This document shows positions 10,265-33,895 of a DNA stretch of 64,000 nt, one piece after another. Source of the DNA: Candidatus Latescibacterota bacterium (GTDB lineage: Bacteria; Latescibacterota; UBA2968; GCA-2709665); contig CBDCOX010000002.1 in NCBI GenBank assembly GCA_965219995.1, positions 5,344,001 through 5,408,000 on the forward strand. The letters are read 5' to 3'. Within the stretch, counting starts at the first letter, position 1; each line of letters begins with the position of its first letter. The position numbers and the translations under genes are program-made. The notes beneath the pieces are model-generated. The model did no database searches, was not told where the DNA came from, and saw only the letters and a list, made by a program, of their open reading frames with translations.

Positions 10265-12229
10265 CTGAACTTCCAGAGTCCATGTGATCTAACCCATTGA
10301 TTTCGGGGTTGTGTTTTTGAGAACGAGCGTGCGCTACTGGGTACGTTCGAGGCGGATGCCGAGGAGCTTGAAGGCTTCGCGTTGCAGGGCGGTGGGTCGC
10401 GTGATGAGGTCGAAGGGTTCGGCGCCGGGGAGCTGCGGCAACACGCGGTTTTTGGCGATGGTGGCGAGGTCGGCGAGCAGGGTCTGGAAGCTGTGCACGG
10501 GCAGACCGTCGGCGGTGCGCTTGCTGCGCGCCTTGTCGCGCGCGGCGTTGGAGACTGCGGCGGGCGCGACCACGGAGGTTCGCGCGGCGTGTGCGGCGTC
10601 TGGATCGTGGTCGTCGAACAGCAGCGGCTTGAGGCGTTGCCGCATGTGCCACTCGACGTGGTAGGCGAGCATGCACAGGAACACGTGCGCGCGCACCCGG
10701 TTGGCGGCATGGTGGTGGATGGGCCGCACCTTGAGGTCGACCGTCTTGAGGCTGCGGAAGGCGCGCTCGACGACGGCCAGGCCCTTGTAGGCGGCGACGG
10801 TGCCGGCGGCGTCGAGTTGGTCGTCCGGCAGGCTGGTGCGGACGACATGGATGCCGTCGAGAGCGGCCTCGGCGGCGATGGCGTCGGCCTTGCGCGCATG
10901 GGCGAAGGAGCGTTCGCCGACGTCGAGGTCGAAGTGCTTGGCCATCTTGTACTTGCCGACCACCTTGCCGACGCGCAGCGCGATCTGGTTGGCGCCACGC
11001 AGCGGGCGCCGGTCGCGTTGGGTGGCGGCGGCCACGGCGTCGAGGAGTTCCTCGGTGGCGCGCAGCAGTTCCTCGCGCTTGCGCGCGCGCAGTTCGGCGA
11101 GCAGCGGGTTGCGGCACACCATGAGCCGCTCGCCGGGGAAGTCGTCGCTGCGGATCTCGATCAGGTCGGTCTCGTCGAACAGCGACGGCTGCACGGCGCC
11201 GGCGTCGGCGAGGCGGCGGATGGCGGGCGCGCGCAGGGCGCTGATCCAGTCGAGGCCGGCGGGTCGCAGTTGGTCGCGGATGCGCGCGTCGGTGAGCATG
11301 CCGCGGTCGCCGACCAGCACCACGCGGTCGAGGCCGAAGCGGCGCCGCAGCTTGTCGATCTGCGCGCCCAGCGTGGCGGGATCGGCGGTGTTGCCGTCGA
11401 ACACCTCGACCGCCACGGGACAGCCGTCGCGGTTGCACAGCAGGCCGAAGACGATCTGCGGCTTGCCGCGCTTGCCGTCGCGCGAGTAGCCGCGCTTGGC
11501 GAGTGGGCAGCAGTGGCCTTCCAGGTGGCTGGAGGTCAGGTCATAGAGCACCAGGGCGCCGTCGGCGAGATGGCGCCTGGCGAGGCGCGCCTCGATGGCG
11601 TGCTGGCGTTCGAGCAGCCAGTCCATGGCGGCGTACAGGTCGTTCTCGTCGGCGTCCTCGACGCCGAGTTCCGCGGCGAGGGAGTCGCGGGCGGTGTCGG
11701 CGGCGAGGCCGCGGGCGGTGGCGAGCTTGGAGCCCGGATGGAGGATGCGGGCGGCGATCAGCGCGACGGCCAGGTCGCGCCGCCGCGAGCGGGTCCCGGC
11801 GAGCAGGCGGTCGAGGCGCAGCTTGCGCAGGGTGCCGAGCACGGCGGCGACGTGGCCGTGCGGCAGCGAGCGGAGGATGTCGATGGCGGCGGCGGGATCG
11901 GCGACGGCGGCGCCGCCCTTGAGCAGGACGCGCAGGCCGGCGACGAGCTCGGGCGGCCACTTGGAGAGGTTGGCGAGGGTGCGCTTGCGGACCTTGCCGT
12001 CGTGGCGGAAGGACTCGCGCAGCAGGACGGCGGGCGGGGAGTTCCGGTTGGGCACGGACTCGATGTACATGGGCACGTATGATACGTCCAATGCCCACGC
12101 ATGACAACCGAAAGTCACGAATAAACGATCATTTACATGGCTACAGATTCCAGCCTGTGAAACACCAACAATCTACGTCGAATCAAACGGTTAGGTGCGA
12201 AAAACGGGCGGCAAACTCTGGAAGTTCAG
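10265..12229 (-). mobile_element. IS1634-family insertion sequence, complete
   Basis: Perfect 15-bp terminal IRs CTGAACTTCCAGAGT (10265-10279 / 12215-12229); 6-bp target duplication GTTAGC (10259-10264, 12230-12235); an equivalent reading is 16-bp IR with TTAG duplication. Confidence 0.93.
10334..12070 (-). CDS. IS1634-family DDE transposase
   Basis: MYIESVPNRNSPPAVLLRES..., LYDLTSS, GYSRDGK, VGDRGM, VERAFRSLK, RVRAHVFLCMLAY. Confidence 0.95.
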   Translation of the reverse strand: MYIESVPNRNSPPAVLLRESFRHDGKVRKRTLANLSKWPPELVAGLRVLLKGGAAVADPAAAIDILRSLPHGHVAAVLGTLRKLRLDRLLAGTRSRRRDLAVALIAARILHPGSKLATARGLAADTARDSLAAELGVEDADENDLYAAMDWLLERQHAIEARLARRHLADGALVLYDLTSSHLEGHCCPLAKRGYSRDGKRGKPQIVFGLLCNRDGCPVAVEVFDGNTADPATLGAQIDKLRRRFGLDRVVLVGDRGMLTDARIRDQLRPAGLDWISALRAPAIRRLADAGAVQPSLFDETDLIEIRSDDFPGERLMVCRNPLLAELRARKREELLRATEELLDAVAAATQRDRRPLRGANQIALRVGKVVGKYKMAKHFDLDVGERSFAHARKADAIAAEAALDGIHVVRTSLPDDQLDAAGTVAAYKGLAVVERAFRSLKTVDLKVRPIHHHAANRVRAHVFLCMLAYHVEWHMRQRLKPLLFDDHDPDAAHAARTSVVAPAAVSNAARDKARSKRTADGLPVHSFQTLLADLATIAKNRVLPQLPGAEPFDLITRPTALQREAFKLLGIRLERTQ

Positions 12230-12440: not shown

Positions 12441-14234
12441 TCAAAGCCCCACGATCGGCAACTCGACACGGCTCGGGTGCTCCGAGTCGTGGTGAATGCT
12501 GATTTCGCTGGTCTGCATCCGGGTCGCGGTCGCGATCGGCTCGCCGGTGTTCGGGTTGGGGTCGAGTATCGGGAACTCGGTGCCCGAAACCGTCACGCGC
12601 AGCACGTTGCCGGCGGCCAGGGTGTGCCCGACGTACGCCAGGGGGATCTCCACAGTGTAGACCCTGCCCGGTTCGAGCCGGACCTCCCGGTCGAAGCCCT
12701 CGTGGTAGCGCAGCCTCAAGGCGCCGCCGGTGCCGAGGCGGATGGCCCGCCCGTCGGGGTAGACCTCGTGCAGGTTCACGATCAGGTCGGTGTCCGGCGT
12801 CGATATGGAGACATGCACGACGGCCCGGCTCTCGCCGATGACGGTCACCGGTTCCGCGAGCGGGGCGGAGTCGTAGACCAGGACCGCTTCGTTCCGGTGG
12901 GAGTCGGAGTACTCGCCGATCCCGGTCATCATGTCGGTGATGGCCACCACCGGGTTGGCCGGGTCCGCGACCGTCACGTCGGCCGGGGCGGCCGAACCGG
13001 GCGCGAACCCCAACGAACCGTCGCCCCCCACGCCGTTGGCCGCCCCGTCGCTCGCCAGGTACACCGCCGTCCTCTCGAGCCCGGGCACCGGCAGGCTGTC
13101 GAACTCCCGCCAGACGTTGCTGCCGGTGACGAACACGCGCACGCGCTGCGGCAGCGACACGGACGCGGGCAATCCCTTGAGGTAGCGGTCGAAAAACGCG
13201 ATGCGCAGCGCCGACATGTCGACGACGCCGGCGCCGTCGAAGCGGTACGGCCCCTCCGCCGGCGGTATGCCGACATAGGAACCGCCGTGGTTCCAGGGCC
13301 CGATCAGGAGCTTGCGGTGCTGCGGATTGGGCGCGTTCTCCTCGAGCTCCCGCCAGGCGTGCAGCGTGCCGATGGACGGGTCGAAGTTGCCGGTCACCAG
13401 CAGCACGGGAATGGCGACCCGCGCGTAGTGCTCGTCCATCATCATCGTCTCGCGCCAGTAATCGCTGCCCAGGACCGGTTCCTCGAGGAACCGGCGGTAC
13501 TGGACGAGTTCGTCGCCGTCGAGGTAGCCGTTCGCGGAGTCGAGGAGCGGGCGGGACGCGAGCAGGCGCTGCCATTCCGGGTCGTCGATCACGCGGCGGG
13601 AGTCCATGAAGCCGACGCCGGTTTCCTCGAAGGACCGCAGGCGCAGCAGCTTGTGCCAGTTCAGCATGTGATAGCGCATGAAGATGCCGCCCGAGTACGG
13701 CGTCTCCCGGAAGAAATGGGACGACGGCACGAACGGGATGATCGCCTTGAGCGCCGGCGGTGCGGTGCTCGCGGCCTGCAGTTGCGTCATGGCGTTGTAC
13801 GAACCGTGGTCCATGCCCACGTTGCCGTCGCTCCAGGGCTGGTCGGCGATCCACGCGATGCAGTCGTACCCGTCGTTGCGGTCGTCGGCGATGAACCGGT
13901 AGCGGCCGTCGTTGTCGCCGATGCCGCGCGCGAGCTGCCAGACGACGGCGTACCCCGCCTCGAGGTAGGCATCCATGATCGCGTTGTGGCGCGGCCCGAT
14001 GGAGAGCAGGTAGGGCGTGCGCACGAGCACCGTCGGAAAGGGCCCCTCGCCCGCCGGCAGGTTGACGTAGGTCAGGAGCTTCGCGCCGTCGCGCATGGCC
14101 ACCCGGACCTCCATTTCCCCGGGCCGCGCGGGCGGGTCCGCCGGTTCCTGCGCCCACGCAACGCCGCCTGGCGTAGCGGCGAGCATCCCGGCCAGCAGCA
14201 GCGCGTGGCACAGGTCGACGACTCGTTTTCTCAT
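12441..14234 (-). CDS. Secreted CocE/NonD family hydrolase
   Basis: Signal peptide; VAMRDGAKL, LVRTPY, DGYDCIAWIADQPWSDGNVG, HGSY, IGPWNHG. Confidence 0.92.
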   Translation of the reverse strand: MRKRVVDLCHALLLAGMLAATPGGVAWAQEPADPPARPGEMEVRVAMRDGAKLLTYVNLPAGEGPFPTVLVRTPYLLSIGPRHNAIMDAYLEAGYAVVWQLARGIGDNDGRYRFIADDRNDGYDCIAWIADQPWSDGNVGMDHGSYNAMTQLQAASTAPPALKAIIPFVPSSHFFRETPYSGGIFMRYHMLNWHKLLRLRSFEETGVGFMDSRRVIDDPEWQRLLASRPLLDSANGYLDGDELVQYRRFLEEPVLGSDYWRETMMMDEHYARVAIPVLLVTGNFDPSIGTLHAWRELEENAPNPQHRKLLIGPWNHGGSYVGIPPAEGPYRFDGAGVVDMSALRIAFFDRYLKGLPASVSLPQRVRVFVTGSNVWREFDSLPVPGLERTAVYLASDGAANGVGGDGSLGFAPGSAAPADVTVADPANPVVAITDMMTGIGEYSDSHRNEAVLVYDSAPLAEPVTVIGESRAVVHVSISTPDTDLIVNLHEVYPDGRAIRLGTGGALRLRYHEGFDREVRLEPGRVYTVEIPLAYVGHTLAAGNVLRVTVSGTEFPILDPNPNTGEPIATATRMQTSEISIHHDSEHPSRVELPIVGL

Positions 14235-14298: not shown

Positions 14299-14751
14299 TC
14301 ACATGCTGTAGCCGATCCTCAACCCGTAGGTCCGCGGCGGCGCGAGCAGCCCGCGCATGCCGAGCAGGCCGCTCGGGTAGATCTGCAGCACGTAGACCTC
14401 GTCGCCCAGGTTCTTGCCCCAGGCGGCCACCGTCCAGCGGCCGTCGGAGCTCGTGTAGGTGGAACCCCCGGCGGAGACGTTGTTCGCCGTCAGGCTCGGC
14501 GCGAAGCGGCCGAGGTCCGCCACGTCGTCGAGGATGGCCTGCTTGAGCTTCTCGTCGTCGAAGGCGCTCACCGCGACAGGCACCTCGTAGAGGTTCTCCT
14601 CGCGTTTCTGCGCGGTGACGACGATTTCCTCCAGCGCCGGCTGGGCGTGGGCGACATTGCCGGCCGCGAGCAGGGGCGGCAGGAGAAGCACGGGCAAACA
14701 GGGGACGCACCGCGCGCTTCGCCGCGAACGGATGGGATCGCTAGTGTTCAT
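14299..14751 (-). pseudogene. Internally deleted TonB-dependent receptor (mini-gene: signal, TonB box, plug start, last beta-strands)
   Basis: LEEIVVTAQKREENLYEVPVAVSAF...FAPSL joined in frame near 14460 to DGRWTVAAWGKNLGDEVY...PPRTYGLRIGYSM*; 150 aa versus about 800 aa for intact TBDRs in this window. Confidence 0.85.
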
Positions 14752-14902
14752 GTCGGTCTCCTCCACGCAAATGCACGGCACGGCCTTGGCGGACCCCGCC
14801 GCCCGTTCCCAACGCCGACCTGCCTCCCGAAACGACGCGATACTCCCGGCACTCCCTCAGTGCTGAGGGTGCAAGGCACGGGCCGCGTCATGGAATGAGC
14901 CC

Positions 14903-14998
14903 GGAGGAGCCTTCAGCCGGGGAAGTTCCCTCGGCCGCTGACGCGTAAGGAAGTGTCGGTGTTCCTCCCTTCGGCGGATGCGTACTTCCATGCAAGTA
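14903..14998. repeat. 96-bp element, copy 1
   Basis: GGAGGAGCCTTCAGCC...CATGCAAGTA; 95/96 identical to 30375-30470. Confidence 0.9.
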
Positions 14999-15012
14999 CC
15001 GCTGGAGACGAA

Positions 15013-15567
15013 ATGAACACGATCCGCACCCGCGCCCTCTTCGCCGGACCGACACTCGCGGCGTCGATGTGCGCCGGGTTGCTCGTTGGCTGCGCCCCGG
15101 GCGAGGCTCCGCGCGAAGACGGTCAAGCCGGCCCGGCGCCGGTCGCCGCGGAGGAACCCTCGAGCCCGCCGGAGGAAAGCGGTACGACGGACAAGGGCAT
15201 CGTCGTCGGCACCACCGGCGCCGCCGCGGTGCAGGCGGGGTTGGCCATCCTCAAGGCGGGCGGCTCGGCCATGGACGCCGCGTTGGCCACCGCGATGGCG
15301 CAGGTGACCCTCGCCGCGGGAAGCTGGGTCAGCTTCGCGGGCATCATGACGCTGGTCTACTACGACGCCGAGACCGACGCCGTCTACAACATGAACGCGT
15401 CCTACAACACGGTGGCCGGCGAGGACGACCCCATGACCATCCCGGGCCTGGACATTGGCGACATCATGTCCACGGAGCTCCGGCCGTCCGGCGCGCCACC
15501 TTGGTGCCGGGATTCATGAAGGGCGTGGAAGCGGGCCATGAGCGCTTCGGCAAGGTCCCCTTCGCGG
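15013..15567 (+). pseudogene. Truncated, frameshifted copy of gamma-glutamyltransferase
   Basis: Same N-terminus as 17017 gene; GGG to GG deletion near 15490; homology ends at 15567. Confidence 0.9.
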
Positions 15568-15579
15568 TGGCCGGGATTG

Positions 15580-16161
15580 TCAGCGCGGTAGCTGTCGCGT
15601 CAACGACGATGCGGTGAAGAGTTTCGTCAAGACGTCCAGACCAGCGCGACGCAATGCGTCGAGGTGCTGCTCGGGTGAGACCGGAGGATTGCGCAGTCGG
15701 GTGCGGACGCGTTCCGAGGCATCGACGAAACGGCTGGGCGATTCTTGGTAGAGGCGAACCAGGAATCCGTCGGGGTGTTCGGCCTTGAGCCCGTGGGCGG
15801 CGAGCACGGACGCCGGAAAGTCCTTGAGATTGGCGGTGACGATTACATCCGCTTCGCCGCGTGCCGCCGCTGCGACGATATGGCGATCGTCGGGATCGGG
15901 CAGCTGGATTGCGGGCATCAGTTCCTCGTAGCCTGAGACCAGAGCGTCCCGGACGTGGAAGTCCATGAGGCGGCGCGTGCGATTGAGGCGGGTAGCCGGG
16001 ATGTCGGGCCGGCTACGCCGCAGCGCGCGAATCCACTCGTCGTGGACGGCCGTGGACCACTTGGCGCGGTAGAAGTCCGATACTGCGAGTTCGAGCAAAA
16101 GGTCGCGCAGCGGCGCGGGGTACAGGACGGAGGCGTCGAGAAAGGCGACGATGACCGGCAA
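15580..16161 (-). CDS. PIN-domain protein (VapC-like toxin)
   Basis: FLDASVLYPAPLRDLLL, HDEW, LPDPDDRHIVAAA, IVTANLKDFP. Confidence 0.92.
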   Translation of the reverse strand: MPVIVAFLDASVLYPAPLRDLLLELAVSDFYRAKWSTAVHDEWIRALRRSRPDIPATRLNRTRRLMDFHVRDALVSGYEELMPAIQLPDPDDRHIVAAAARGEADVIVTANLKDFPASVLAAHGLKAEHPDGFLVRLYQESPSRFVDASERVRTRLRNPPVSPEQHLDALRRAGLDVLTKLFTASSLTRQLPR

Positions 16162-16164
16162 CGG

Positions 16165-16617
16165 TCAATAGCCCATGTCGAGTTCCTGGGCGTCGGCGGC
16201 AAGTTCATCGAGTGCCCGGCGCCGAGCGGTATCCGTCTCGTTCTTGTAGCGGAGTACGTCGTGGACGCGCACGCGGCGATGCGTGCCCACCTTCCGGAAC
16301 GGCACGGCACCCTCTTCGATGAGTCCGACGAGAAAGGGCCGCGACACGTTGAGGAAGTCGGCCGCCTGCTGGGTCGTCAGCTCGGCGTCCTTGCGGAGCA
16401 CGGCGACGGCGCTGCCGGCGGCGATGTCCTGGAGGATTTCCATGAGGAGCGGACCGACCGAGGCCGGCAGTTCGACGACCTCCCGGCCGTGTACGCCGGT
16501 GACGCTGAGCGTCAAGGCATGATCGGTGTGGAGAAAGGCGGCGAGGCGCTCGCTGGAGGTGCGGGCAACCTCGGCGTCTGCCGGCGTAGGATCGGGGAAA
16601 CGGCTCTGTACTGTCAT
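16165..16617 (-). CDS. Excisionase-family HTH DNA-binding protein (PIN-associated antitoxin)
   Basis: ELTTQQAADFLNVSRPFLVGLIEEGAVPFRKVGTHRRV...QELDMGY, directly upstream of PIN gene. Confidence 0.9.
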   Translation of the reverse strand: MTVQSRFPDPTPADAEVARTSSERLAAFLHTDHALTLSVTGVHGREVVELPASVGPLLMEILQDIAAGSAVAVLRKDAELTTQQAADFLNVSRPFLVGLIEEGAVPFRKVGTHRRVRVHDVLRYKNETDTARRRALDELAADAQELDMGY

Positions 16618-16824
16618 GGCGTTGCCGCGCGATGGATTGTTGCAGACAACATAGCGCCTGGGCCCCACTAAACGCAATAATCGCAACGCTTGCAGCAGCG
16701 TCGGACCGGTGGCCAGCCCACGCCCAGGACGGGGCGTTGTCAGAGTAACTGACGGCAGGGTTTCTCGAGCCTGTCGCGCTGGTTGGCCTCGCAGCAGGTT
16801 GCGGCATGGAGGGAGAAGCCGGGT

Positions 16825-17572
16825 TGCCTCCCGAAACGACGCGATACGCCCGGCACTCCCTCATTGCTGAGGGTGCAAGGCACGGGCCGCGTCATGGAAT
16901 GAGCCCGGAGGAGCCTTCAGCCGGGGAAGCTTCCCCAGCCGCTGACGCGTAAGGAAGCGCTCGCGTTCCCCGCGTCGGCGGAGGCGTTCTTCCATGCAAG
17001 TACCGCTGGAGACGAAATGAACACGATCCGCACCCGCGCCCTCATCGCCGGACCGACACTCGCGGCGTCGATGTGCGCCGGGTTGCTCGTTGGCTGCGCC
17101 CCGGGCGCGGCTCCGCGCGACGACGGTCAAGCCGGCCCGGCGCCGGTCGCCGCGGAGGAACCATCGAGCCCGGCCGAAGAAGGCGGTACGACGGACAAGG
17201 GCATCGTCGTGGGCACCACCGGCGCCGCCGCGGTGCAGGCGGGGCTGGACATCCTCAAGGCGGGCGGCTCCGCCATGGACGCCGCGTTGGCCACCGCGAT
17301 GGCGCAGGTGACCCTCGCCGCGGGAAGCTGGGTCAGCTTCGCGGGCATCATGACGCTGGTCTACTACGACGCCGAGACCGACGCCGTCTACAACATGAAC
17401 GCGTCCTACAACACGGTGGCCGGCGAGGACGACCCCATGACCATCCCGGGCCTGGACATCGGCGACTTCATGTCCACGGAGCTCCGGCCGTCCGGGCGCG
17501 CCACCCTGGTGCCGGGATTCATGAAGGGTGCGGAAGCGGGCCATGAGCGCTTCGGCAAGGTCCCCTTCGCGG
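16825..17572 (+). repeat. Direct duplication (copy B), intact GGT locus
   Basis: Matches 14821-15567. Confidence 0.95.
16907..17002. repeat. 96-bp element, copy 2 (divergent)
   Basis: About 14 mismatches versus copy 1 by manual alignment, same length and ends. Confidence 0.85.
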
Positions 17573-18807
17573 ACCTGTTCGAGGCCTCCATCCGCATCGC
17601 CGAGGAAGGCATGCCGTTCAACGCCGGCCTGGTGCAGAACGTCGAGTTCCGCTCGAACGTCCTCTCCCGCCGCCCGGAGACCCGGGCGGTCTTCGCGCGG
17701 GAGGACGGCTCCTTCCACGAACTCGGCGACACCTTCCGGCAGCCGGCGCTGGCGGCGACGCTGCGCCGGGTCGCCGCCGACGGCAACGTGGACTACCTCT
17801 ATGCGGGCGCATGGGCCGAGAAGCTGGTCGCGGCGGTCCGGGAGGAAGGGGGCCGGATGACCATGGAAGACCTCGCCGCCTACGAAGTCCTCTGGAGCGA
17901 CCCGGTGGTGGCCGACTATGCCGGGCACCAGGTCTTCTCCCACGGCCTTCCGGCCACCGGCGGCGTCAACACCACCGAGGCGCTGAACATCCTGGAGGCC
18001 GCGGACATCAAGTCCATGGGGCACTACACCGAATCGCCGGAAGCCCTCTTCTGGCTCACCCAGCTCACGCGGCTGTCCATGGCCGGCTACCTGTTCCCCC
18101 ATCTCGCCGACGAGATGCCGGGGGTGGACATGTCGCCGCGGGGCCGGCTCGGCAAGCCGCACGGCCGCGCGCTCTGGGCCGCGCTGCAGGCCGGCGACAT
18201 CCCCTTCGCCCGCCCCCCGCGGACCGTGCCCGTGCACTCCGACACCATCGCCACCGCCGACCAGTGGGGCAACATGCTGGGCATGGTGCACTCCATCAAC
18301 ACCGTGAGCTGGGGCATGACGGGCATCTTCGTCGACGGCATCTCGATCCCGGACTCCGCCGCGCACCAGCAGGCGCAGATCGCGGCCGCCGGACCGGGCG
18401 CGCGGCTGCCCGACGCGACCAATCCGGGCATCGTGATGCGCGACGGAGCGCCGCTGCTCGCCTACGGCTCCATCGGCATGGGTCTGCACCAGAAGACCAT
18501 CCAGGCCCTGCACTCGATCCTGGACTTCGGCTACAGCCCCGACGAGGCGGCGAGCGCACCGGCCTTCGGTTCTCCGGAGTTCACCTCGACCGGCCTCACC
18601 GAGCGGACCAGCATCGTGGAGGGCAGGTTCGATCCCGAGGTGGTCGCCGCCGCGAACGCCATGGGCGCCAATCTCTACGAGGACGACCTCCTGCAGGGCG
18701 GCTGGTCCGGCGCCATGATCGACCCCGACACGGGCGCGCGCAGCGGCGGCGTCTCCATGGTCTGGGCGCTGACGCCGGACAACGACAGCCGGCCGGTCGG
18801 CTATTGA
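17017..18807 (+). CDS. Gamma-glutamyltransferase family lipoprotein
   Basis: Lipobox LLVGC; AGLDILKAGGSAMDAA, VPG, RFGKVPFADL, QPALAATL, HSDTIATADQWGN. Confidence 0.9.
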   Translation: MNTIRTRALIAGPTLAASMCAGLLVGCAPGAAPRDDGQAGPAPVAAEEPSSPAEEGGTTDKGIVVGTTGAAAVQAGLDILKAGGSAMDAALATAMAQVTLAAGSWVSFAGIMTLVYYDAETDAVYNMNASYNTVAGEDDPMTIPGLDIGDFMSTELRPSGRATLVPGFMKGAEAGHERFGKVPFADLFEASIRIAEEGMPFNAGLVQNVEFRSNVLSRRPETRAVFAREDGSFHELGDTFRQPALAATLRRVAADGNVDYLYAGAWAEKLVAAVREEGGRMTMEDLAAYEVLWSDPVVADYAGHQVFSHGLPATGGVNTTEALNILEAADIKSMGHYTESPEALFWLTQLTRLSMAGYLFPHLADEMPGVDMSPRGRLGKPHGRALWAALQAGDIPFARPPRTVPVHSDTIATADQWGNMLGMVHSINTVSWGMTGIFVDGISIPDSAAHQQAQIAAAGPGARLPDATNPGIVMRDGAPLLAYGSIGMGLHQKTIQALHSILDFGYSPDEAASAPAFGSPEFTSTGLTERTSIVEGRFDPEVVAAANAMGANLYEDDLLQGGWSGAMIDPDTGARSGGVSMVWALTPDNDSRPVGY

Positions 18808-28310: not shown

Positions 28311-30266
28311 CTATGTGGGAATGATGGGCAGCTCTACATGGGATGGATACTCACCGCCGTGATGGACGGTGATCGTGGCCCGGCGTCCCTCCGACTCGCG
28401 CACCGTGTCGCCCCCGGTGTTCATGTTGCGGTCGTAGGTCGGCAGGTTCGAACTCGTGATGTCCACGCGGATGCGGTGGCCGGGGCGGAAGTAGTTGGCG
28501 TAGACGAGCATGTCTATCTCGATCGGGTAGACCACGCCGGGTTCCATCAGGACCACCCTGTCGTAGCCCTCGCGATAGCGTAGCCGAAGGTAGCCTTCCT
28601 GCAGCGCGAACGCGCGGCCGTCGGGGTAGACGTCGTAGAGCTTCACGGACAGGTCCGTGTCCGGCACGTCCGTGGACACGTGGATCGTCGCGCGCATCTT
28701 GCCGGTGATCTCGATGCCTTCCGCAAGCGGTTCGCTCGTGTACACGAGGACGTCCGGCCGCTCCTGCACGTCCGAGAGATCGAAGCTGCCGCTGTGCACC
28801 GCGCGTACCGGCTCCAGGATCGGGTCGGCCGGATCGTAGACATAGGTGTCCGATCCGGCTTCGTCCGGCTCGGAAAAGACGACTCTCCCGGATTCCATGC
28901 TGCTGCCCGCCGCGCCACTGCTGGTGAGGAATAAGCGGGTCGGGGTGGTGCCTTCGATGGGCCAGACGTCCGAGGACTTCCACTCGTTCCGTCCGGGAAG
29001 GTAGTACTGGATTCTCGGTTTCCGGTCGAAGCCGTTGTCCACGCCCTTCAGGGTGTAGTCCCACCACCGGAGGTAGGTCCCCCAGATGTCCTTGCGCGCA
29101 TCGCCCATGTCCCTCTGGCCCGACACCGTCCGCGACGAAACGGACTCGATGTTGCAGTGCGCGAGCGGCGAGATGATCACGAACTGGTTGTCGCGCGCGT
29201 ACTGGCTCTCGGCCTTTTCGCTGAAGTGCCGGAACTGCAGGAACGTCTCGTTCACGCCGTAGTCGTGCCACGAGTTGACGTGCAGGGCCGCCGCGTCGAC
29301 CCGGGTGTCGTCCTCCAGGTAATCGCCGCCGTCCCACCAGGGATCCATGGGCTCGCGGGTGAGGTCCTCCCAGTCCGACGGGGGCGAATCGAGATGTTCG
29401 GCGATGTCGATCGAAGGCAGCACCAGCATGGCGTCGACGAAGTACTTGTTGAACAGCTCCGGGCTTTCCGCCATCGACAGCAGGTCGACGTTGAGGTTCG
29501 GGGCCGGGTCGTAGAAGTCGGCCACCCGCAGGAACTCCTCCCGCGAGAGCCGGCGCGACGGGCGGTAGAACAGGTTGGTGCCCGAAAAGTGCGCCCAGAG
29601 CGCCATCGTCAGGTTCGTGGCTCCGCCCCGCTTCCAGAGCTTGGCCATGGTGCCGCCCGCGGTGCCGTGACCGGTGGCGGCGGACTGCGGGACGATGGAG
29701 GTCAGCGCGGGATGCAGCGTCTGGGCCGCCTTGATCTGGTTGGCGCCCGGGATCGAGCAGCCGATCATGCTGCTCCGGCCGCTGAACCAGGGCTGTTCGC
29801 CGAACCAGTCGAGCGTGTCGGCGGCATCCTCGACGTCTCCGTTCAGCACCACGTAGTGGCCTTCCGATTCGAACTTCCCGCGCCGGTCCTGGACGGCGAA
29901 CACGTAACCGTGGCTCGCGTAGTAGTAGGCCTGGTTCGCGGCCGAGATGGGCGCGTCCGGGTCGGCGTTGCGCCGGCTGGCCTTGTCGTACGGGGTCCGT
30001 TCGAGAATGACGGGCAGCCTGCCCTTTGCTTCCACCGGGAATTCGACCGGGAAGTAGAGGTCCGTCGAGAGCCGCACGCCGTCGCGCATCGGAACGAAGT
30101 GGCTGCGCTCGAACCTGACTTCGTAGGGGCCCTTCCCGAACGGGACGGTCTCCGGCTCGGGCGGCGGACTCTCCGCGGCCGGCGTCTCCCCCTCCTGTTC
30201 CGCCGCGCAGCCAAAGATCGCCAACAGAGTCGTGCACAGCAACAGGTGCCGGATCAATGTTCTCAT
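28311..30266 (-). CDS. CocE/NonD family hydrolase, lipoprotein
   Basis: Start MRTLIRH with lipobox AIFGC; VPMRDGVRLSTD, ERTPY, QDRRGKFESEG, GCSIPG. Confidence 0.9.
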   Translation of the reverse strand: MRTLIRHLLLCTTLLAIFGCAAEQEGETPAAESPPPEPETVPFGKGPYEVRFERSHFVPMRDGVRLSTDLYFPVEFPVEAKGRLPVILERTPYDKASRRNADPDAPISAANQAYYYASHGYVFAVQDRRGKFESEGHYVVLNGDVEDAADTLDWFGEQPWFSGRSSMIGCSIPGANQIKAAQTLHPALTSIVPQSAATGHGTAGGTMAKLWKRGGATNLTMALWAHFSGTNLFYRPSRRLSREEFLRVADFYDPAPNLNVDLLSMAESPELFNKYFVDAMLVLPSIDIAEHLDSPPSDWEDLTREPMDPWWDGGDYLEDDTRVDAAALHVNSWHDYGVNETFLQFRHFSEKAESQYARDNQFVIISPLAHCNIESVSSRTVSGQRDMGDARKDIWGTYLRWWDYTLKGVDNGFDRKPRIQYYLPGRNEWKSSDVWPIEGTTPTRLFLTSSGAAGSSMESGRVVFSEPDEAGSDTYVYDPADPILEPVRAVHSGSFDLSDVQERPDVLVYTSEPLAEGIEITGKMRATIHVSTDVPDTDLSVKLYDVYPDGRAFALQEGYLRLRYREGYDRVVLMEPGVVYPIEIDMLVYANYFRPGHRIRVDITSSNLPTYDRNMNTGGDTVRESEGRRATITVHHGGEYPSHVELPIIPT

Positions 30267-30296
30267 TCGGGGTAGCGTGTCCAAGCGTGTCATCCA

Positions 30297-30535
30297 GAAA
30301 TCGTAGCCGGCTTCTACACCAAGCTGCCGCGGATAGTCCTGGGTAAAGGTGACGAGACCCATCGCCGGTGTCTGGGAGGAGCCTTCAGCCGGGGAAGCTC
30401 CCTCGGCCGCTGACGCGTAAGGAAGTGTCGGTGTTCCTCCCTTCGGCGGATGCGTACTTCCATGCAAGTAGACGGCGTCAGACTCTCCAAGCAGGTTCTT
30501 GCCGAACGCGTAGACGCCGATGTTGCCGATGCTGG
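30297..30535 (-). pseudogene. C-terminal remnant of a TonB-dependent receptor, interrupted in frame by the 96-bp element
   Basis: IGNIGVYAFGKNLLGESDAV [96 bp] QTPAMGLVTFTQDYPRQLGVEAGYDF; KNL...PRxxG...YxF is the TBDR C-terminal signature. Confidence 0.7.
30375..30470. repeat. 96-bp element, copy 3
   Basis: One mismatch versus 14903-14998; flanks unrelated. Confidence 0.9.
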
Positions 30536-30604
30536 CGCGCCCGGCCGGGGGCGCGCGGTTCGTCGAGCGCGACGACGGCGAGCTCGAACTGAGAACCGAT
30601 CTGC

Positions 30605-31558
30605 TCAGTTGCCTGGACGAAACACTTCGTCGAGCGTGTCGGCGTCGAGGACGTTGTCAGCCCAGATCTCGAGATCGGCGGCAGACGCCCGGCGCAGCCT
30701 TTCGGCGGCTTGGGGAGACAGGCGCCCGAACCGGCGCCGGAGTTGCCGTTCGAGGACCGCCCGCTCGCCCTCTACGCGGCCTTGACGGACGCCGCGTTCC
30801 ATGCCTTCCTGCCGACCCTCCTGCCTGCCTTCCTGCCTGGCCTCGTCACGGGCTCTCTCGATGACTCCTGCCATGACCCTGCTCTCCTCCGCGTAGCCGC
30901 TCTCGTAGCGCCGGTACTCGTCCTCGTCGAGTTCGGCGTAGACGTCGATGAACGTCATGTATTTTGCCCTCCTGTCCGGGTCCGGTTCCACCGCCTCCAG
31001 CCCCCGCACCGCGGCCGCGTAGGCGTCGACCCGGCGCCCGGCCGGGACGCGCATGTTCGGAAGGTTCACCAGCGCCGCCACGTTGCGGCTCTCGCGCCAG
31101 CGCTCGTAAGGCGTCGCGGCAAGCCGGAAGGCGAGGTGGTCGAACGTCAGGTAGGGGCGCCGCTCGGTGCCGAGCACCAACGCCGCCGCGCTCCCGGCCG
31201 GCGCCGTGCCGCGCAGGAAGATCGTCACCGGCACCACGCGGTCCGTCTCGTACAACTGCGCGATGTCCAGGCAGTAGTGCGCGAGGCGGTGCTGCGAGAA
31301 CCGCCGCGCCTCGGTCTCCTGCTCGACGACGAACAGCATCGCCTTGCGGCGGTCGTCGGCCCAGCGGACCAGCAGCGGTGCGTCGAGCTCGCGGAAGCGG
31401 TCGCCGAGGCGCTCCTTGAGCTGCTCCTGGCGCAGCGGCGTGATATCCACCTCGTCGTCCGGCGCCGGCGCCTCCTCGGGGGCAAAGAAGGCCAGCGCGT
31501 CGCGCGGGTAGTCAAGGATGAGGTTCTTGAAGTTCTGGTCGTGGCTGACGCTCGCCAT
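30605..31558 (-). CDS. Rpn/YhgA-like PD-(D/E)XK nuclease with DUF4351-type C-terminus
   Basis: SHDQNFKNLILDYP, RQEQLKERLGDRFRELD, VVEQET, (R/Q)EG repeats, VLERQLRRRFG...LE.WADNVLDA.TLDEVF. Confidence 0.85.
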   Translation of the reverse strand: MASVSHDQNFKNLILDYPRDALAFFAPEEAPAPDDEVDITPLRQEQLKERLGDRFRELDAPLLVRWADDRRKAMLFVVEQETEARRFSQHRLAHYCLDIAQLYETDRVVPVTIFLRGTAPAGSAAALVLGTERRPYLTFDHLAFRLAATPYERWRESRNVAALVNLPNMRVPAGRRVDAYAAAVRGLEAVEPDPDRRAKYMTFIDVYAELDEDEYRRYESGYAEESRVMAGVIERARDEARQEGRQEGRQEGMERGVRQGRVEGERAVLERQLRRRFGRLSPQAAERLRRASAADLEIWADNVLDADTLDEVFRPGN

Positions 31559-31816
31559 GGCTGCGCCCGGTGCTTTTTTCTGGCCAAAGGATGGGCCGGA
31601 GCGGGGCGGCCGCGCTACGGCAGATCGTCTACATGGCGACGGGCCGATCTCCCACGACCGCGGGGGGCGCTGGACTACACGGGCTCGCGGTTGGCGGCCT
31701 GGGGACGGCGTCCGTCTATGGCACCGGAGCCATCTTGGCAACGCGCCGGGCGATCGTCGCTCCTGCCGGCCGCCAGCCGGCAGCGCCCGCCGCGGGCGGA
31801 AACGGCGCGGAGCCGG

Positions 31817-33895
31817 TCAGTCCCCCGCTTCCGGCGCGTGCTTCCCGAACCACCCGAGCAGCGTCGTCATCTTCGACATCGCGTGGCTCGGCCGCGCCAC
31901 GATGCCGTGCGCCTCGCCCGGAACGCGCACCAGGACGGTCTCCACGCCCTGCAGCTTGAGCGCCTTGTAGTACTGCTCGGACTCGGACATCGGCGTGCGC
32001 CAGTCTTCCTCGCCGGTCATGATGAGCGTCGGCGTCTTCACGTTCTCCGACACCCGGAGCAGGGAGCGCGCCTCATAGTTGTCCCGGTGGCGCCAGGGCA
32101 GTCCCGGCACCCAGTAGTCGAGGAACATGCCGGACAGGTCCGCCGTGAAGACGAAGCTCTCCCAGTTGATCACCGGGTAGAACGCAACCGCCGCGCGGAA
32201 GCGGTCGGTGTTGCCGATCATCCAGGCCGTCAGCACCCCGCCGCCGCTGCCGCCGGTCACGTACAGCCGGTCCTCGTCGACGAAACCCATGCCGATGACG
32301 TGGTCCACCGCCGAGTCCAGGTCGTGGAAGTCGTCTCCCGGGTAGGCGTGGTGGATGAGGTTCCCGAACTCCTCGCCGTAGCTGATGCTGCCGCGGGGGT
32401 TGGTGTACAGCACGACGTAGCCGGCGGCGGCCATGAGCTGCTTCTCCGTGTCGAAGACGTCGCCGTAGTCCGCGAACGGGCCGCCGTGAATCTCCAGGAT
32501 CAGCGGGTACTTTCGCGAGGCGTCGAACCCGGGAGGCTTGATGATCCAGCCCTGCACCGGGCGGCCGTCCTTCGACGAGTTCCACCGCAACTCCTCCACC
32601 GCGCCGAGTTCGCGCTCGCCGAACAGGTCCGCGTTCAGGTCGGTGAGCACGCGTCCGGACTCGCCCGGGTCGGCGACGGCGACATCGCCCGGCATGACGG
32701 GACCAGGCACCGTGTACGCCAGCCGGCCCTGGTCGCTGATCGACCAGAGGGTGTTGTGGCTGATGTAGCCCGTCTCGCCGCTGCCGATGTCGGGCGCGGC
32801 GACGCGGTGGCCGCCGTCCAGGGAGAACAGCACGAGCCGGGCGTTGCCCTCGTCGTGCACGACGGCGTAGACGCCGCTGCCGTCCGGCGACCATTGCGGC
32901 CCGCCCCCGCCGCGGCGCGCGGAGTCCTGAACATGGCGGTCATAGTCTCCGGTCAGGGTCCTGACGTTGGAGCCGTCGCGGTCCGCCACGTACAGGTCGT
33001 TCTGCTGATGCCCCTGGCGGGCGTCGTCGAAACCCACGTAGGCGATGTGCCTGCCGTCCGGCGATACCGTCGCGGCCACGTCGGGCCCCTCGCGGTCGAT
33101 GAGCCGGCGGGGCGAACCGTCGGCCAGCGCGACCTCGTGGACATCCGGATTCCCGACCGCGTAGATCTCGGCGCCTTCGGTCAGGTCCGCCGCGACGATC
33201 AGCGACTCGCCTTCCGGCGCCCAGGCGAAGCTGCCGGCGCCGAACTGCCGTTCCCCGTGCGTCACCTGGCGCGGGGTACCGCCATCGGCCGCCACGACGA
33301 AAAGGTGCATGTAGCCGGGCGGGACTTCGCCGACCTGGTCGAAGCGGAACGCCAGCCGGTCCGTGTACTTCGGCGGCGGCGCCCAATCGGTGCCCTCGGG
33401 GGCCGGCGGCATCTCGCCGATGACCAGCGGCGGTTCCGGGACGAGGCGCGCGAACGCGATGCGGCCGCCGTCCGGCGACCAGGCGAAACCGCCGGGCGGC
33501 ACGGCATGGCTCGTGATGGCCACGGTATCGCCCGTGTCCATCCAGCGCACGTGAATCTGCGCGCTGCCGCTCTCGTCCGACCGGTACGCCAGCCGGCGCC
33601 CGTCCGGCGACCAGCGGGGCGAGTTGGCCGTGTGCTTCCCTGCGTTCAGCGGCCGGTGGTTCGTTCCGTCCGCATCGATCATCCAGAGGTTCTGGTAGCG
33701 GCGGTCGGTCATCACGTCGTTGAAGTGGCGGACGTAGACCACCTGCTCGCCGTTCGGGGAGATCTGCGCGTCGGTGGCGTACTCCAGTTCGAAGACGTCC
33801 ATCACGTCCAGCGGCTGCGCGGCATGCGCCGCCACGGCGAAGATGGGGAGCGCGAGGGTCGTTCGGAGCATGCCGTTCCTCTCCCGACGGCTCAA
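31817..33895 (-). CDS. S9C acylaminoacyl-peptidase-like prolyl oligopeptidase
   Basis: PD40-like WSPDG repeats, IHGGP, NPRGS, GGSGGG, EEDWRTP, EAHGI. Confidence 0.92.
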   Translation of the reverse strand: MSRRERNGMLRTTLALPIFAVAAHAAQPLDVMDVFELEYATDAQISPNGEQVVYVRHFNDVMTDRRYQNLWMIDADGTNHRPLNAGKHTANSPRWSPDGRRLAYRSDESGSAQIHVRWMDTGDTVAITSHAVPPGGFAWSPDGGRIAFARLVPEPPLVIGEMPPAPEGTDWAPPPKYTDRLAFRFDQVGEVPPGYMHLFVVAADGGTPRQVTHGERQFGAGSFAWAPEGESLIVAADLTEGAEIYAVGNPDVHEVALADGSPRRLIDREGPDVAATVSPDGRHIAYVGFDDARQGHQQNDLYVADRDGSNVRTLTGDYDRHVQDSARRGGGGPQWSPDGSGVYAVVHDEGNARLVLFSLDGGHRVAAPDIGSGETGYISHNTLWSISDQGRLAYTVPGPVMPGDVAVADPGESGRVLTDLNADLFGERELGAVEELRWNSSKDGRPVQGWIIKPPGFDASRKYPLILEIHGGPFADYGDVFDTEKQLMAAAGYVVLYTNPRGSISYGEEFGNLIHHAYPGDDFHDLDSAVDHVIGMGFVDEDRLYVTGGSGGGVLTAWMIGNTDRFRAAVAFYPVINWESFVFTADLSGMFLDYWVPGLPWRHRDNYEARSLLRVSENVKTPTLIMTGEEDWRTPMSESEQYYKALKLQGVETVLVRVPGEAHGIVARPSHAMSKMTTLLGWFGKHAPEAGD

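Follow-up and report, generated by a model that had tools for sequence, protein, structure and literature searches.

The locus studied here raises a simple question: how did a short sequence that occurs a second time in the same stretch of DNA come to lie, in frame, inside what is left of a receptor gene? The stretch, called the window below, is a 64,000-nt part of contig CBDCOX010000002.1 from a source genome of 5.4 Mb (G000; other G and L labels denote the genomes and loci compared with it, and X1, X2, X4 and X6 the runs from which Logan contigs were taken). An original prediction had noted that positions 30375-30470 repeat positions 14903-14998 at 95 of 96 bases between unrelated flanks, and our gapless alignment confirms this, the sole mismatch being T at 14926 against C at 30394. 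Positions 30379-30468, hereafter copy B, are a copy of an interspersed repeat that is 90 nt long, non-coding and non-autonomous and lacks terminal inverted repeats (TIRs); we propose that it is moved in trans by a separate enzyme. To this explanation as a whole we give a probability of about 0.55; its core, namely the identity of the element and its mobility, we consider very probable.

A precise insertion in a probable receptor remnant

The features at the insertion site are as follows.

30379..30468, plus strand: copy B, the 90-nt unit GAGCC...GCAAG lying in the receptor remnant, delimited by empty-site joints and the family consensus
30375..30378, plus strand: GGAG, the native left flank (target side), outside the element and kept in empty-site contigs
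30469..30470, plus strand: TA, the native right flank, kept in empty-site contigs
30294..30378, minus strand: distal part of the receptor remnant (...SQTPAMGLVTFTQDYPRQLGVEAGYDFW), from translation and alignment, coordinates approximate
30469..30527, minus strand: proximal part of the receptor remnant (GNIGVYAFGKNLLGESDAVY), from alignment, coordinates approximate

Four runs, each from a different study, supplied the Logan contigs that were placed on positions 29000-32000. Run X1 may be the source sample; there one contig covers 29000 to 30404 and another 30441 to 30650, both with 0 differences, so that both junctions of the filled allele are supported. X2, X4 and X6 each contain a contig that joins 30376 directly to 30467, skipping 90 bases with a 2-nt ambiguity and with 184-199 nt on the shorter side of the joint; the flanks of these contigs diverge by about 3-5%. 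After a 2-nt slide the missing part is 30379-30468, and the empty site reads ...TCTGGGAG followed directly by TAGACGG.... In X2 and X6, other copies leave loose ends at 30377-30379 and at 30468, matching the limits of the unit. The search for empty-site alleles suggested with the original prediction was thus successful in contigs of three other studies, and the 96-bp size given there has to be corrected to 90 bp, as the empty-site contigs retain GGAG and TA. The dinucleotide AG is present at each junction of copy B, leaving a target duplication ambiguous by 2 nt. Apart from this ambiguity the predicted absence of a target duplication holds, with no flanking direct repeat of at least 7 nt at copy B, and so does that of TIRs: no inverted repeat joins the ends of 30379-30468, in which only internal pairs were found.

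The unit interrupts a C-terminus resembling that of TonB-dependent receptors, on the minus strand and with the frame unbroken, as had been predicted and as translation and alignment confirm. The open frame reads ...GNIGVYAFGKNLLGESDAV on one side of the insert and QTPAMGLVTFTQDYPRQLGVEAGYDFW on the other, and once joined, the remnant can be aligned over its whole junction with the C-terminal ends of two long open reading frames (ORFs) of the same genome that are receptor-like. The C-terminal barrel strands of TonB-dependent receptors follow the pattern NL..D/E ... PR..G.. with an aromatic end; in the remnant without the unit the spacing from NL to PR is 25 residues, compared with 23-25 in relatives. 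When six receptor C-termini from the genome were combined in a profile, this matched the remnant as a single domain (14.7 bits) after removal of the insert only; left in place, the insert split the match into two pieces, of 7.1 and -1.0 bits. Pfam gave no match to the two receptor remnants at E<=10, and a tblastn search of the remnant against its own genome returned element copies only. No S15 peptidase orthologue was found at E<=1e-100 in 14 genomes of the genus, in which a syntenic intact receptor was sought. The assignment of the remnant to a receptor, made from sequence comparison, is reasonable but modest.

Since receptor spacing is normal in the empty form, we take the event at copy B to be an insertion. 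Copy B is, in our reading, a recent and precise insertion between GGAG and TA in a truncated receptor pseudogene. Its polymorphism between strains that are 3-5% apart implies recent activity in the lineage, or import by homologous exchange. Similar evidence comes from two syntenic MAG (metagenome-assembled genome) loci, L063 and L064, which are ~80% identical and contain two reciprocal filled/empty pairs; each time the unit stands right against a stop codon, without a visible duplication.

The repeat family

We scanned one genome per species with a 22-base gapped pattern taken from the conserved core. This gave at least 118 loci with unrelated flanks, and those listed all lie in nine Pseudomonadales/Gammaproteobacteria MAG records; sponge- and marine-associated MAGs of these groups are among the carriers. 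These loci, together with the empty alleles and the two further filled/empty pairs, bear out the earlier view of a non-autonomous element. No full-length copy was found in 60 relatives of the source genome, one of which has a 29-nt match (E=0.0015). Counted with no more than one mismatch and against reversed-pattern controls, matches to the 5' motif numbered 467 in G061 (control 3) and 128, 133, 112 and 81 in G062, G063, G064 and G103 (controls 0-1); in the source genome they numbered 7, for 4 real copies. By this measure the family has been amplified to roughly 80-470 copies in several MAGs, both as solo units and as head-to-tail arrays. Its distribution is patchy, with carriers in 7 of 81 genomes of G061 relatives at E<=1e-6, in a search that scored at most 11 candidates per genome.

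The ends of the unit are sharply defined in the family. Across 119 copies, conservation begins 8 nt before CTTCAGCC (C in 85, Y in 87, A in 85, G in 105 and G in 114 of the 119, then AGC) and stops after ...CATGCAAG (CAAG), beyond which the flanks are random. The distance from CTTCAGCC to the CAAG end has a mode of 86 nt (72 of 110 copies), and the preceding GAGC brings the modal unit, GAGCC...GCAAG, to 90 nt. Of 110 copies, 76 have AG as the end of their left flank, with CCAG in 26, CTAG in 14 and CAAG in 12, and the last four bases of the unit itself are CAAG in 81 and GAAG in 13 of the 110. Head-to-tail arrays have periods of 86-90 bp, for example ten units of 89 bp that are 99% identical in one array and seven of 87 bp in another, and in doublets CAAG is directly followed by GAGCC. 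A crude gene call places 60 of 74 copies between genes; where the neighbouring genes run in the same direction, 14 copies are co-oriented with them and 3 opposed.

Two further patterns were seen in the carriers. The 5' motif recurs at 45-bp spacing at G064:C1:1339081-1339276, G064:C1:2407500-2407695 and G103:C2:169578-169773, and such stretches may consist of the 5' half only, repeated as an array; the 90-nt unit would then be modular. In G061 a second recurring sequence (CCTGCGCCGTAGAACGG...GGCTCCTAGCCGAAGG...) often lies 3' of the unit (e.g., L035, L055, L062, L077, L086, L094 and L105), which suggests mosaic repeat clusters.

No published account of the 90-nt unit was found in a text search, as opposed to a sequence search, of the literature on MITEs (miniature transposable elements with inverted repeats), repetitive extragenic palindromic (REP) sequences, sponge symbionts and Azotimanducaceae. 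On the basis of this literature and of Rfam, the family is apparently an undescribed, TIR-less and recently mobile interspersed repeat.

Other copies in the source genome

The original prediction implied two copies. Both are real, and the BLASTN count and definition of ends that it called for put the genome total at exactly four, all within about 200 kb (BLAST and the family profile, nhmmer E<=3e-18, the next match having E=7.4), with hundreds in other genomes and the unit ends at 90 nt.

14907..14996, plus strand: copy A, differing from copy B at 1 of 90 positions, from alignment
16911..17000, plus strand: copy C, differing from copy A at 14 of 90 positions, from alignment
G000:C2:5171866-5171934: copy D, 3'-truncated, from BLAST and the family profile
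14821..15567, plus strand: first copy of a 748-bp duplication, carrying copy A, 95.5% identical to the second
16825-17572: second copy of the 748-bp duplication, carrying copy C

Copies A and C, like B, have GGAG to their left and TA to their right. A truncated gamma-glutamyltransferase duplicate has its ATG (15013) 16 nt downstream of copy A, and the intact gamma-glutamyltransferase gene (17017-18807) begins at the same distance from copy C. The 748-bp direct duplicates bracket a PIN/HTH_17 toxin-antitoxin pair (15580-16686). Their differences are concentrated in the unit, with 14 in its 90 positions and 20 in the 658 positions outside it (p=9e-6), which indicates that the two duplicates carry units of different subfamilies. 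The duplicated segment consists of the region upstream of the gamma-glutamyltransferase gene and its 5' end, leaving a truncated copy of the gene, and its layout looks as if a circle bearing a homologous fragment had integrated by a single crossover.

Copy D abuts a 5'-truncated amidohydrolase gene. On the L084 contig, which is 97% identical over ~6 kb, a complete unit stands 4 nt before the amidohydrolase ATG. The amidohydrolase is broken differently in the two (G000 5171147-5171934, L004, and L084:2670-3046): at copy D the last ~21 nt of the unit and, by estimate, roughly the first third of the gene are missing, and in L084 the unit and 14 amidohydrolase codons are kept and most of the remaining gene is deleted internally. 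L084 and contigs C170, C36, C52 and C173 of G145 are 88-100% identical to the source genome; they cover the amidohydrolase region and fragments of the Rpn-like gene described below, and come from a MAG rich in units. Other loci of that MAG do not match the source genome, which points to either a mixed bin or a very recent exchange.

The element and its surroundings probably reached the source genome by horizontal transfer, and its own copies may be immobile imports.

The host remnant and its neighbours

Two genes border the remnant.

28311..30266, minus strand: CocE/NonD (S15) peptidase gene (Pfam PF02129 and PF08530; TIGR00976 at 1.6e-104)
30605..31741, minus strand: Rpn-like gene with a C-terminal DUF4351 domain (Pfam PF14261) and RQEG three times

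Upstream of the proximal remnant there is only the 3' end of the Rpn-like gene, and the empty-site contigs run on into this end (to 30650-30665). The receptor was therefore already a stump of ~50 codons before the unit was inserted. GGAG and TA encode the codons Tyr-Ser of the remnant, so the insertion amounts to 30 codons and not 32. That it keeps the frame is due to chance and has no functional meaning, since 90 is divisible by three and the host was already a pseudogene, in the empty alleles too.

After ...GYDFW (30280-30300, minus strand) the remnant lacks an in-frame stop, and its frame continues into the S15 peptidase ORF, giving a spurious ORF of 718 codons at 28311-30467. With one G fewer in TTCTGGATGA, at 30280-30300 on the minus strand, two stops would arise. 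Copy B itself lies ~110-200 nt upstream of the S15 peptidase start, on the opposite strand.

The likely start of the Rpn-like gene is the ATG at 31552. Its match to PF14261 has an E-value of about 6.6e-09 to 8.7e-09, and no match to PF04754 (Rpn/Transposase_31) appeared in it even at E<=10. Atlas clusters that resemble it are named 'DUF4351 domain-containing', one of them with 12% PF04754 members, and its N-terminal motif HDQNFKNL presumably resembles that of Rpn. The protein had no plasmid match by tblastn, and among solved structures nothing came below E=0.89.

Predicted structure

The original prediction included two stems, TCAGC/GCTGA around GGGG/CCYC and GGAAGT/ACTTCC, and these proved to be the best-kept pairings across 109 family copies. 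We propose four helices (GC..UCAGC/GCUGA.GC; CGGGG/CCCCG; GGAAGUR/YACUUCC; CNGGC/GCNGG), which pair 96.8% of alignment cells in the 109 copies, where slid partners pair 36-49%; instead of the third helix, a terminal CUUC/GAAG hairpin could form. One-sided changes mostly exchange G-C and G-U or A-U and G-U on the given strand, and would produce A·C mismatches on the other. These changes, which are few events inherited by many copies, hint that the given strand could fold as a single strand. Relative to shuffled sequences, copy C folds with z=-3.8, and copies A and B (z=-1.6) fold no better than the shuffles. The predicted structure is thus compatible with the family alignment, not demonstrated by it.

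The suggested check for a structured RNA returned no relevant Rfam match: over the whole window only a tRNA passed the gathering threshold, and 14800-15050 at E<=10 gave two matches at chance level (13.7 and 12.7 bits). A riboswitch or leader with a sigma-70 start at 14903 was also considered and dropped, as the scan did not bear out a -10 box read by eye and gave 0 promoter-like and 0 terminator-like sites.

How the unit may move

The footprints of the unit fit a single-strand cut-and-paste or copy-and-paste route of the HUH type, of the IS200/IS605 or REP-RAYT kind: it is inserted 3' of NNAG (mostly CYAG), has a target-like CAAG end and shows neither TIRs nor a duplication. The hairpins predicted near both ends, the head-to-tail doublets and the changes from G-C to G-U on one strand also fit such a route. 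According to this model, an enzyme encoded elsewhere would excise or copy the unit, and arrays would then grow by slippage or unequal exchange. We hold the HUH-like mechanism as a tentative and rather doubtful part of the explanation, as most carriers have no such enzyme and the geometry of the hairpins is not the same. A mechanism not of the DDE type, as originally suggested, is plausible from the footprints; the element could not be linked to any transposase.

Several observations weigh against our explanation. Searches of carrier genomes for Y1 and Y2 transposases, reverse transcriptases (RTs) and TnpB disclosed no cognate enzyme. Y1_Tnp (PF01797) is represented by one gene in G061 (37.4 bits) and a sub-threshold match in G064 (22.3 bits), with none in G062, G063 or the source genome, and Y2_Tnp and TnpB occur in G061 only. 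The cleavage sites of IS608 lie at a distance from its hairpins, and the predicted 5' hairpin of the unit starts 2 nt from its left end. The target preference is loose, with 34 of 110 copies not preceded by AG. Covariation is weak, since two-sided changes are limited to 4 pairs (6 cells), a number reached by 17 of 500 shuffles; moreover, of 146 distinct full-length copies, the 38 that fall outside the scan pattern show, by reading, one-sided or disruptive changes in the first helix and no compensatory ones. The strand on which the unit lies in G061 varies with position, from 12 plus and 27 minus below 1.62 Mb to 37 plus and 12 minus above 2.5 Mb (first 100 of 242 matches listed), and this switch does not fit an origin at dnaA (3.80 Mb). 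Finally, the choice between insertion and precise excision at copy B depends on the receptor spacing rather than on an outgroup.

As to the candidate enzymes, Y1, Y2, RT and TnpB were rejected as mobilisers, being missing from most carriers and having no element-like flanks: no unit-like sequence was found in the flanks of their genes (best E=3.3), and no unit lies within 1.5 kb of the Y1/RAYT-like gene of G061 (L139).

A different source of the enzyme was proposed with the original prediction, which pointed to the adjacent Rpn nuclease. In its general form this explanation states that Rpn-like nucleases (DUF4351, of PD-(D/E)XK type) cut at NNAG and promote insertion and excision of the unit. 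Homologues are present in all 15 element-bearing genomes tested (G000, G061-G064, G067, G077, G080, G087, G089, G103, G145-G148; E<=1e-20, mostly 57-76% identity, with 49% in G103 and at best 47% in G146), compared with 0 of 60 relatives of the source genome and 13 of 74 element-negative relatives of G061 (Fisher p=2e-5, uncorrected for kinship). The single Rpn-like gene of the source genome lies 134 nt from copy B, and in carrier genomes the family is multi-copy and includes pseudogenes. As stated, however, the claim is not supported at the level of loci: of 20 loci (170 kb) from 8 genomes, which surround a total of more than 30 Rpn-like genes, 1 holds the element, and no Rpn-like match occurs in the 118 element loci listed. 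G094, G093 and G086 are rich in Rpn-like matches (7, 4 and 4) and have no element match, and G080, with 17, has one partial match, in the search that scored at most 11 candidates per genome; the empty-site strains, too, carry the Rpn-like 3' end beside the site. Shared habitat, kinship and co-transfer could explain the co-occurrence in genomes, striking as it is. Excerpts of PMC10400941 and PMC5350276 describe Rpn proteins as toxic endonucleases with intragenic antitoxins and a role in phage defence, and those of PMC10400941 describe variable four-residue repeats; the threefold RQEG and the stand-alone C-terminal fragments fit that role. We therefore regard Rpn-like nucleases as a lead, though an improbable one, to the mobiliser. 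The unit could also be a functional RNA or a cis-regulatory module (a 5'-leader, terminator or stabiliser) that is spread by recombination and slippage. Copies A and C stand 16 nt before a gamma-glutamyltransferase start and the intact form of copy D 4 nt before the amidohydrolase ATG in L084, and the intergenic and co-oriented placement (60 of 74; 14 versus 3), the retention of G-U on one strand and the folding of copy C (z=-3.8) agree with such a role. Hundreds of near-identical copies and arrays of 10 units are not expected of it, nor are precise insertions, with empty alleles, in a pseudogene remnant and at stop codons; there is no Rfam family, covariation is weak, copies A and B reach z=-1.6 only, and no promoter or terminator consensus was found nearby. 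This role appears unlikely to us.

An RNA route is compatible with the head-to-tail arrays and with changes that tolerate G-U. By this route a transcript of the unit would be reverse-transcribed, possibly by a rolling circle that yields arrays, and the cDNA inserted. RVT_1 genes are present in G061 (2) and G063 (1), but the source genome, G062 and G064 have none, no element-like sequence lies beside the RT genes (best E=3.3), and the junctions bear no A-tail or template-switch marks, so that we consider this route very unlikely. Copy B could also be imagined as a patch of 96 bp, the size first given, taken over from copy A together with its flanks by gene conversion or by capture of filler DNA at a break, as A and B share GGAG and TA beyond the 90-nt unit, which would be rare for independent insertions. 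Indeed, A/C and B have these six flanking bases (GGAG/TA) at unrelated sites, which is unexpected from the flank frequencies of the family. They are not a copied flank, however, because the empty alleles already carry GGAG followed by TA, so the six bases predate the insertion, and the loose ends in X2 and X6 fall at 30377-30379 and 30468. Patch copying is hence extremely improbable, and the shared bases suggest either a finer target choice or coincidence. The reading of copy B as an inserted TIR-less repeat is the one that we retain.

Some features of the Rpn-like genes themselves were also observed. Full-length genes are often directly followed by one or two stand-alone C-terminal thirds (query residues ~250-377), as at L156, L157, L162, L165 and L168-L170 (G061-G064, G080), and these stand-alone copies recall the intragenic antitoxin described for E. 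coli Rpn. Several of the genes have in-frame stops, and in G080 they form clusters of 3-5.

Comparison with known systems

Palindrome-associated transposable elements (PATEs) are miniature derivatives of IS200/IS605-family transposons. IS200/IS605 elements themselves, according to excerpts of PMC3201880, PMC5027513 and PMC5934647, have no TIRs and make no target duplication, insert 3' of a short specific sequence and have a target-like 3' end. The unit resembles them in lacking both TIRs and a duplication, in its preference for insertion 3' of NNAG, in its target-like end and, tentatively, in the hairpins predicted near both ends, whose helices show little covariation. Unlike them, it has no Y1 TnpA in 3 of 5 carriers and one sub-threshold match in another, no unit ends surround the Y1 genes, and its target (NNAG in 76 of 110 copies; GGAG at copy B) is a loose preference rather than a fixed site. 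Its left hairpin, 2 nt from the end, its long arrays and the 45-bp spacing of its motif are further differences.

REP sequences are portrayed in excerpts of PMC3733652, PMC2817692, PMC3116915 and PMC3337134 as high-copy, GC-rich, hairpin-forming, mostly intergenic repeats, lying between genes or downstream of them and often clustered, some families of which have no known transposase; a REP is there a single palindrome of 20-40 nt with a GTAG or CGTC tag, found mostly in inverted pairs. The unit shares the first set of properties with REP, BIME and REPIN sequences. It differs from REPs and REPINs in its 90-nt length, its two different halves and its head-to-tail arrangement, and from REP-RAYT systems, whose single-copy RAYT gene lies between the repeats, in that no copy of the unit flanks the RAYT-like gene of G061 and three carriers have no such gene. 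Membership in the CGTC-tagged REP families was considered and rejected: the CGTC of the unit, on the other strand, is partly in a stem, where the tag of a REP is unpaired, and the stem of 8-9 bp with a loop of 4-5 nt given in the excerpted part of PMC3733652 is not matched.

MITEs are defined by TIRs and target duplications, as excerpts of PMC3184786 and PMC10969869 put it. Like a MITE, the unit is small, non-autonomous, multi-copy and insertion-polymorphic; unlike one, it has neither TIRs nor a target duplication, both of which were tested. Rickettsia palindromic elements (RPEs) can sit in frame inside ORFs, and copy B likewise is a short repeat in frame inside an ORF. RPE-4 and RPE-6 are named as CGTC repeats in the excerpted part of PMC3733652. 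In contrast to RPEs, copy B has as its host a remnant of ~50 codons, and its in-frame fit therefore does not bear on tolerance in a working protein. Mycobacterial interspersed repetitive units (MIRUs) form direct tandem arrays of 45-100 bp units between genes, oriented with the neighbouring genes and abutting stop or start codons. In these traits the unit is similar, with direct tandem intergenic arrays that are co-oriented and lie beside stop and start codons. We know of no MIRU that occurs as a precise solo insertion with empty alleles, as the unit does.

By analogy, the unit would seem to work most like REP/REPIN sequences and IS200/IS605 derivatives, yet it fails the defining tests of the former and the cognate-transposase test of the latter. 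It is a small, structured, TIR-less interspersed repeat, of a kind that is known, in a family that is itself apparently new.

Small interspersed repeats are common in bacteria, and the movement of most families is still obscure. The present family offers clean material in this respect, having exact 90-nt bounds, natural filled and empty alleles at ~95-97% flank identity and hundreds of copies in complete MAG chromosomes. Because some carriers are without any of the single-strand or retro transposases searched for, TIR-less mobilisation can here be tested by comparative genomics and excision assays. One may speculate, against the odds as we judge them, that an enzyme class not known to transpose moves the unit in sponge-symbiont populations, with Rpn/DUF4351 proteins as the leading candidate; if true, the unit would be the first cognate mobile substrate for 'Transposase_31-like' proteins. 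For annotation, the unit accounts for odd open frames, pseudo-insertions and contig breaks in carrier genomes, and it marks DNA exchange between unrelated sponge-associated bacteria.

Other features of the window

A second receptor remnant, of 160 codons and with an internal deletion, lies at 14299-14781 on the minus strand. It fuses an N-terminal signal and the start of a plug (EEIVVTAQKREENLYEVPV...) to a C-terminal ...GKNLGDEVYV...RIGYSM, and is located upstream of a second S15 peptidase gene (12441-14234), in parallel to the copy B locus. A DDE_Tnp_1 transposase gene (10334-12118, minus strand; PF01609 at 1.8e-17) is found ~300 bp from the first S15 peptidase gene in the window. Peptidases and related enzymes are abundant overall, with two S15 and three S9 genes, a gamma-glutamyltransferase, a DUF885 gene and a beta-lactamase-fold gene, and these are interspersed with mobile and broken genes.

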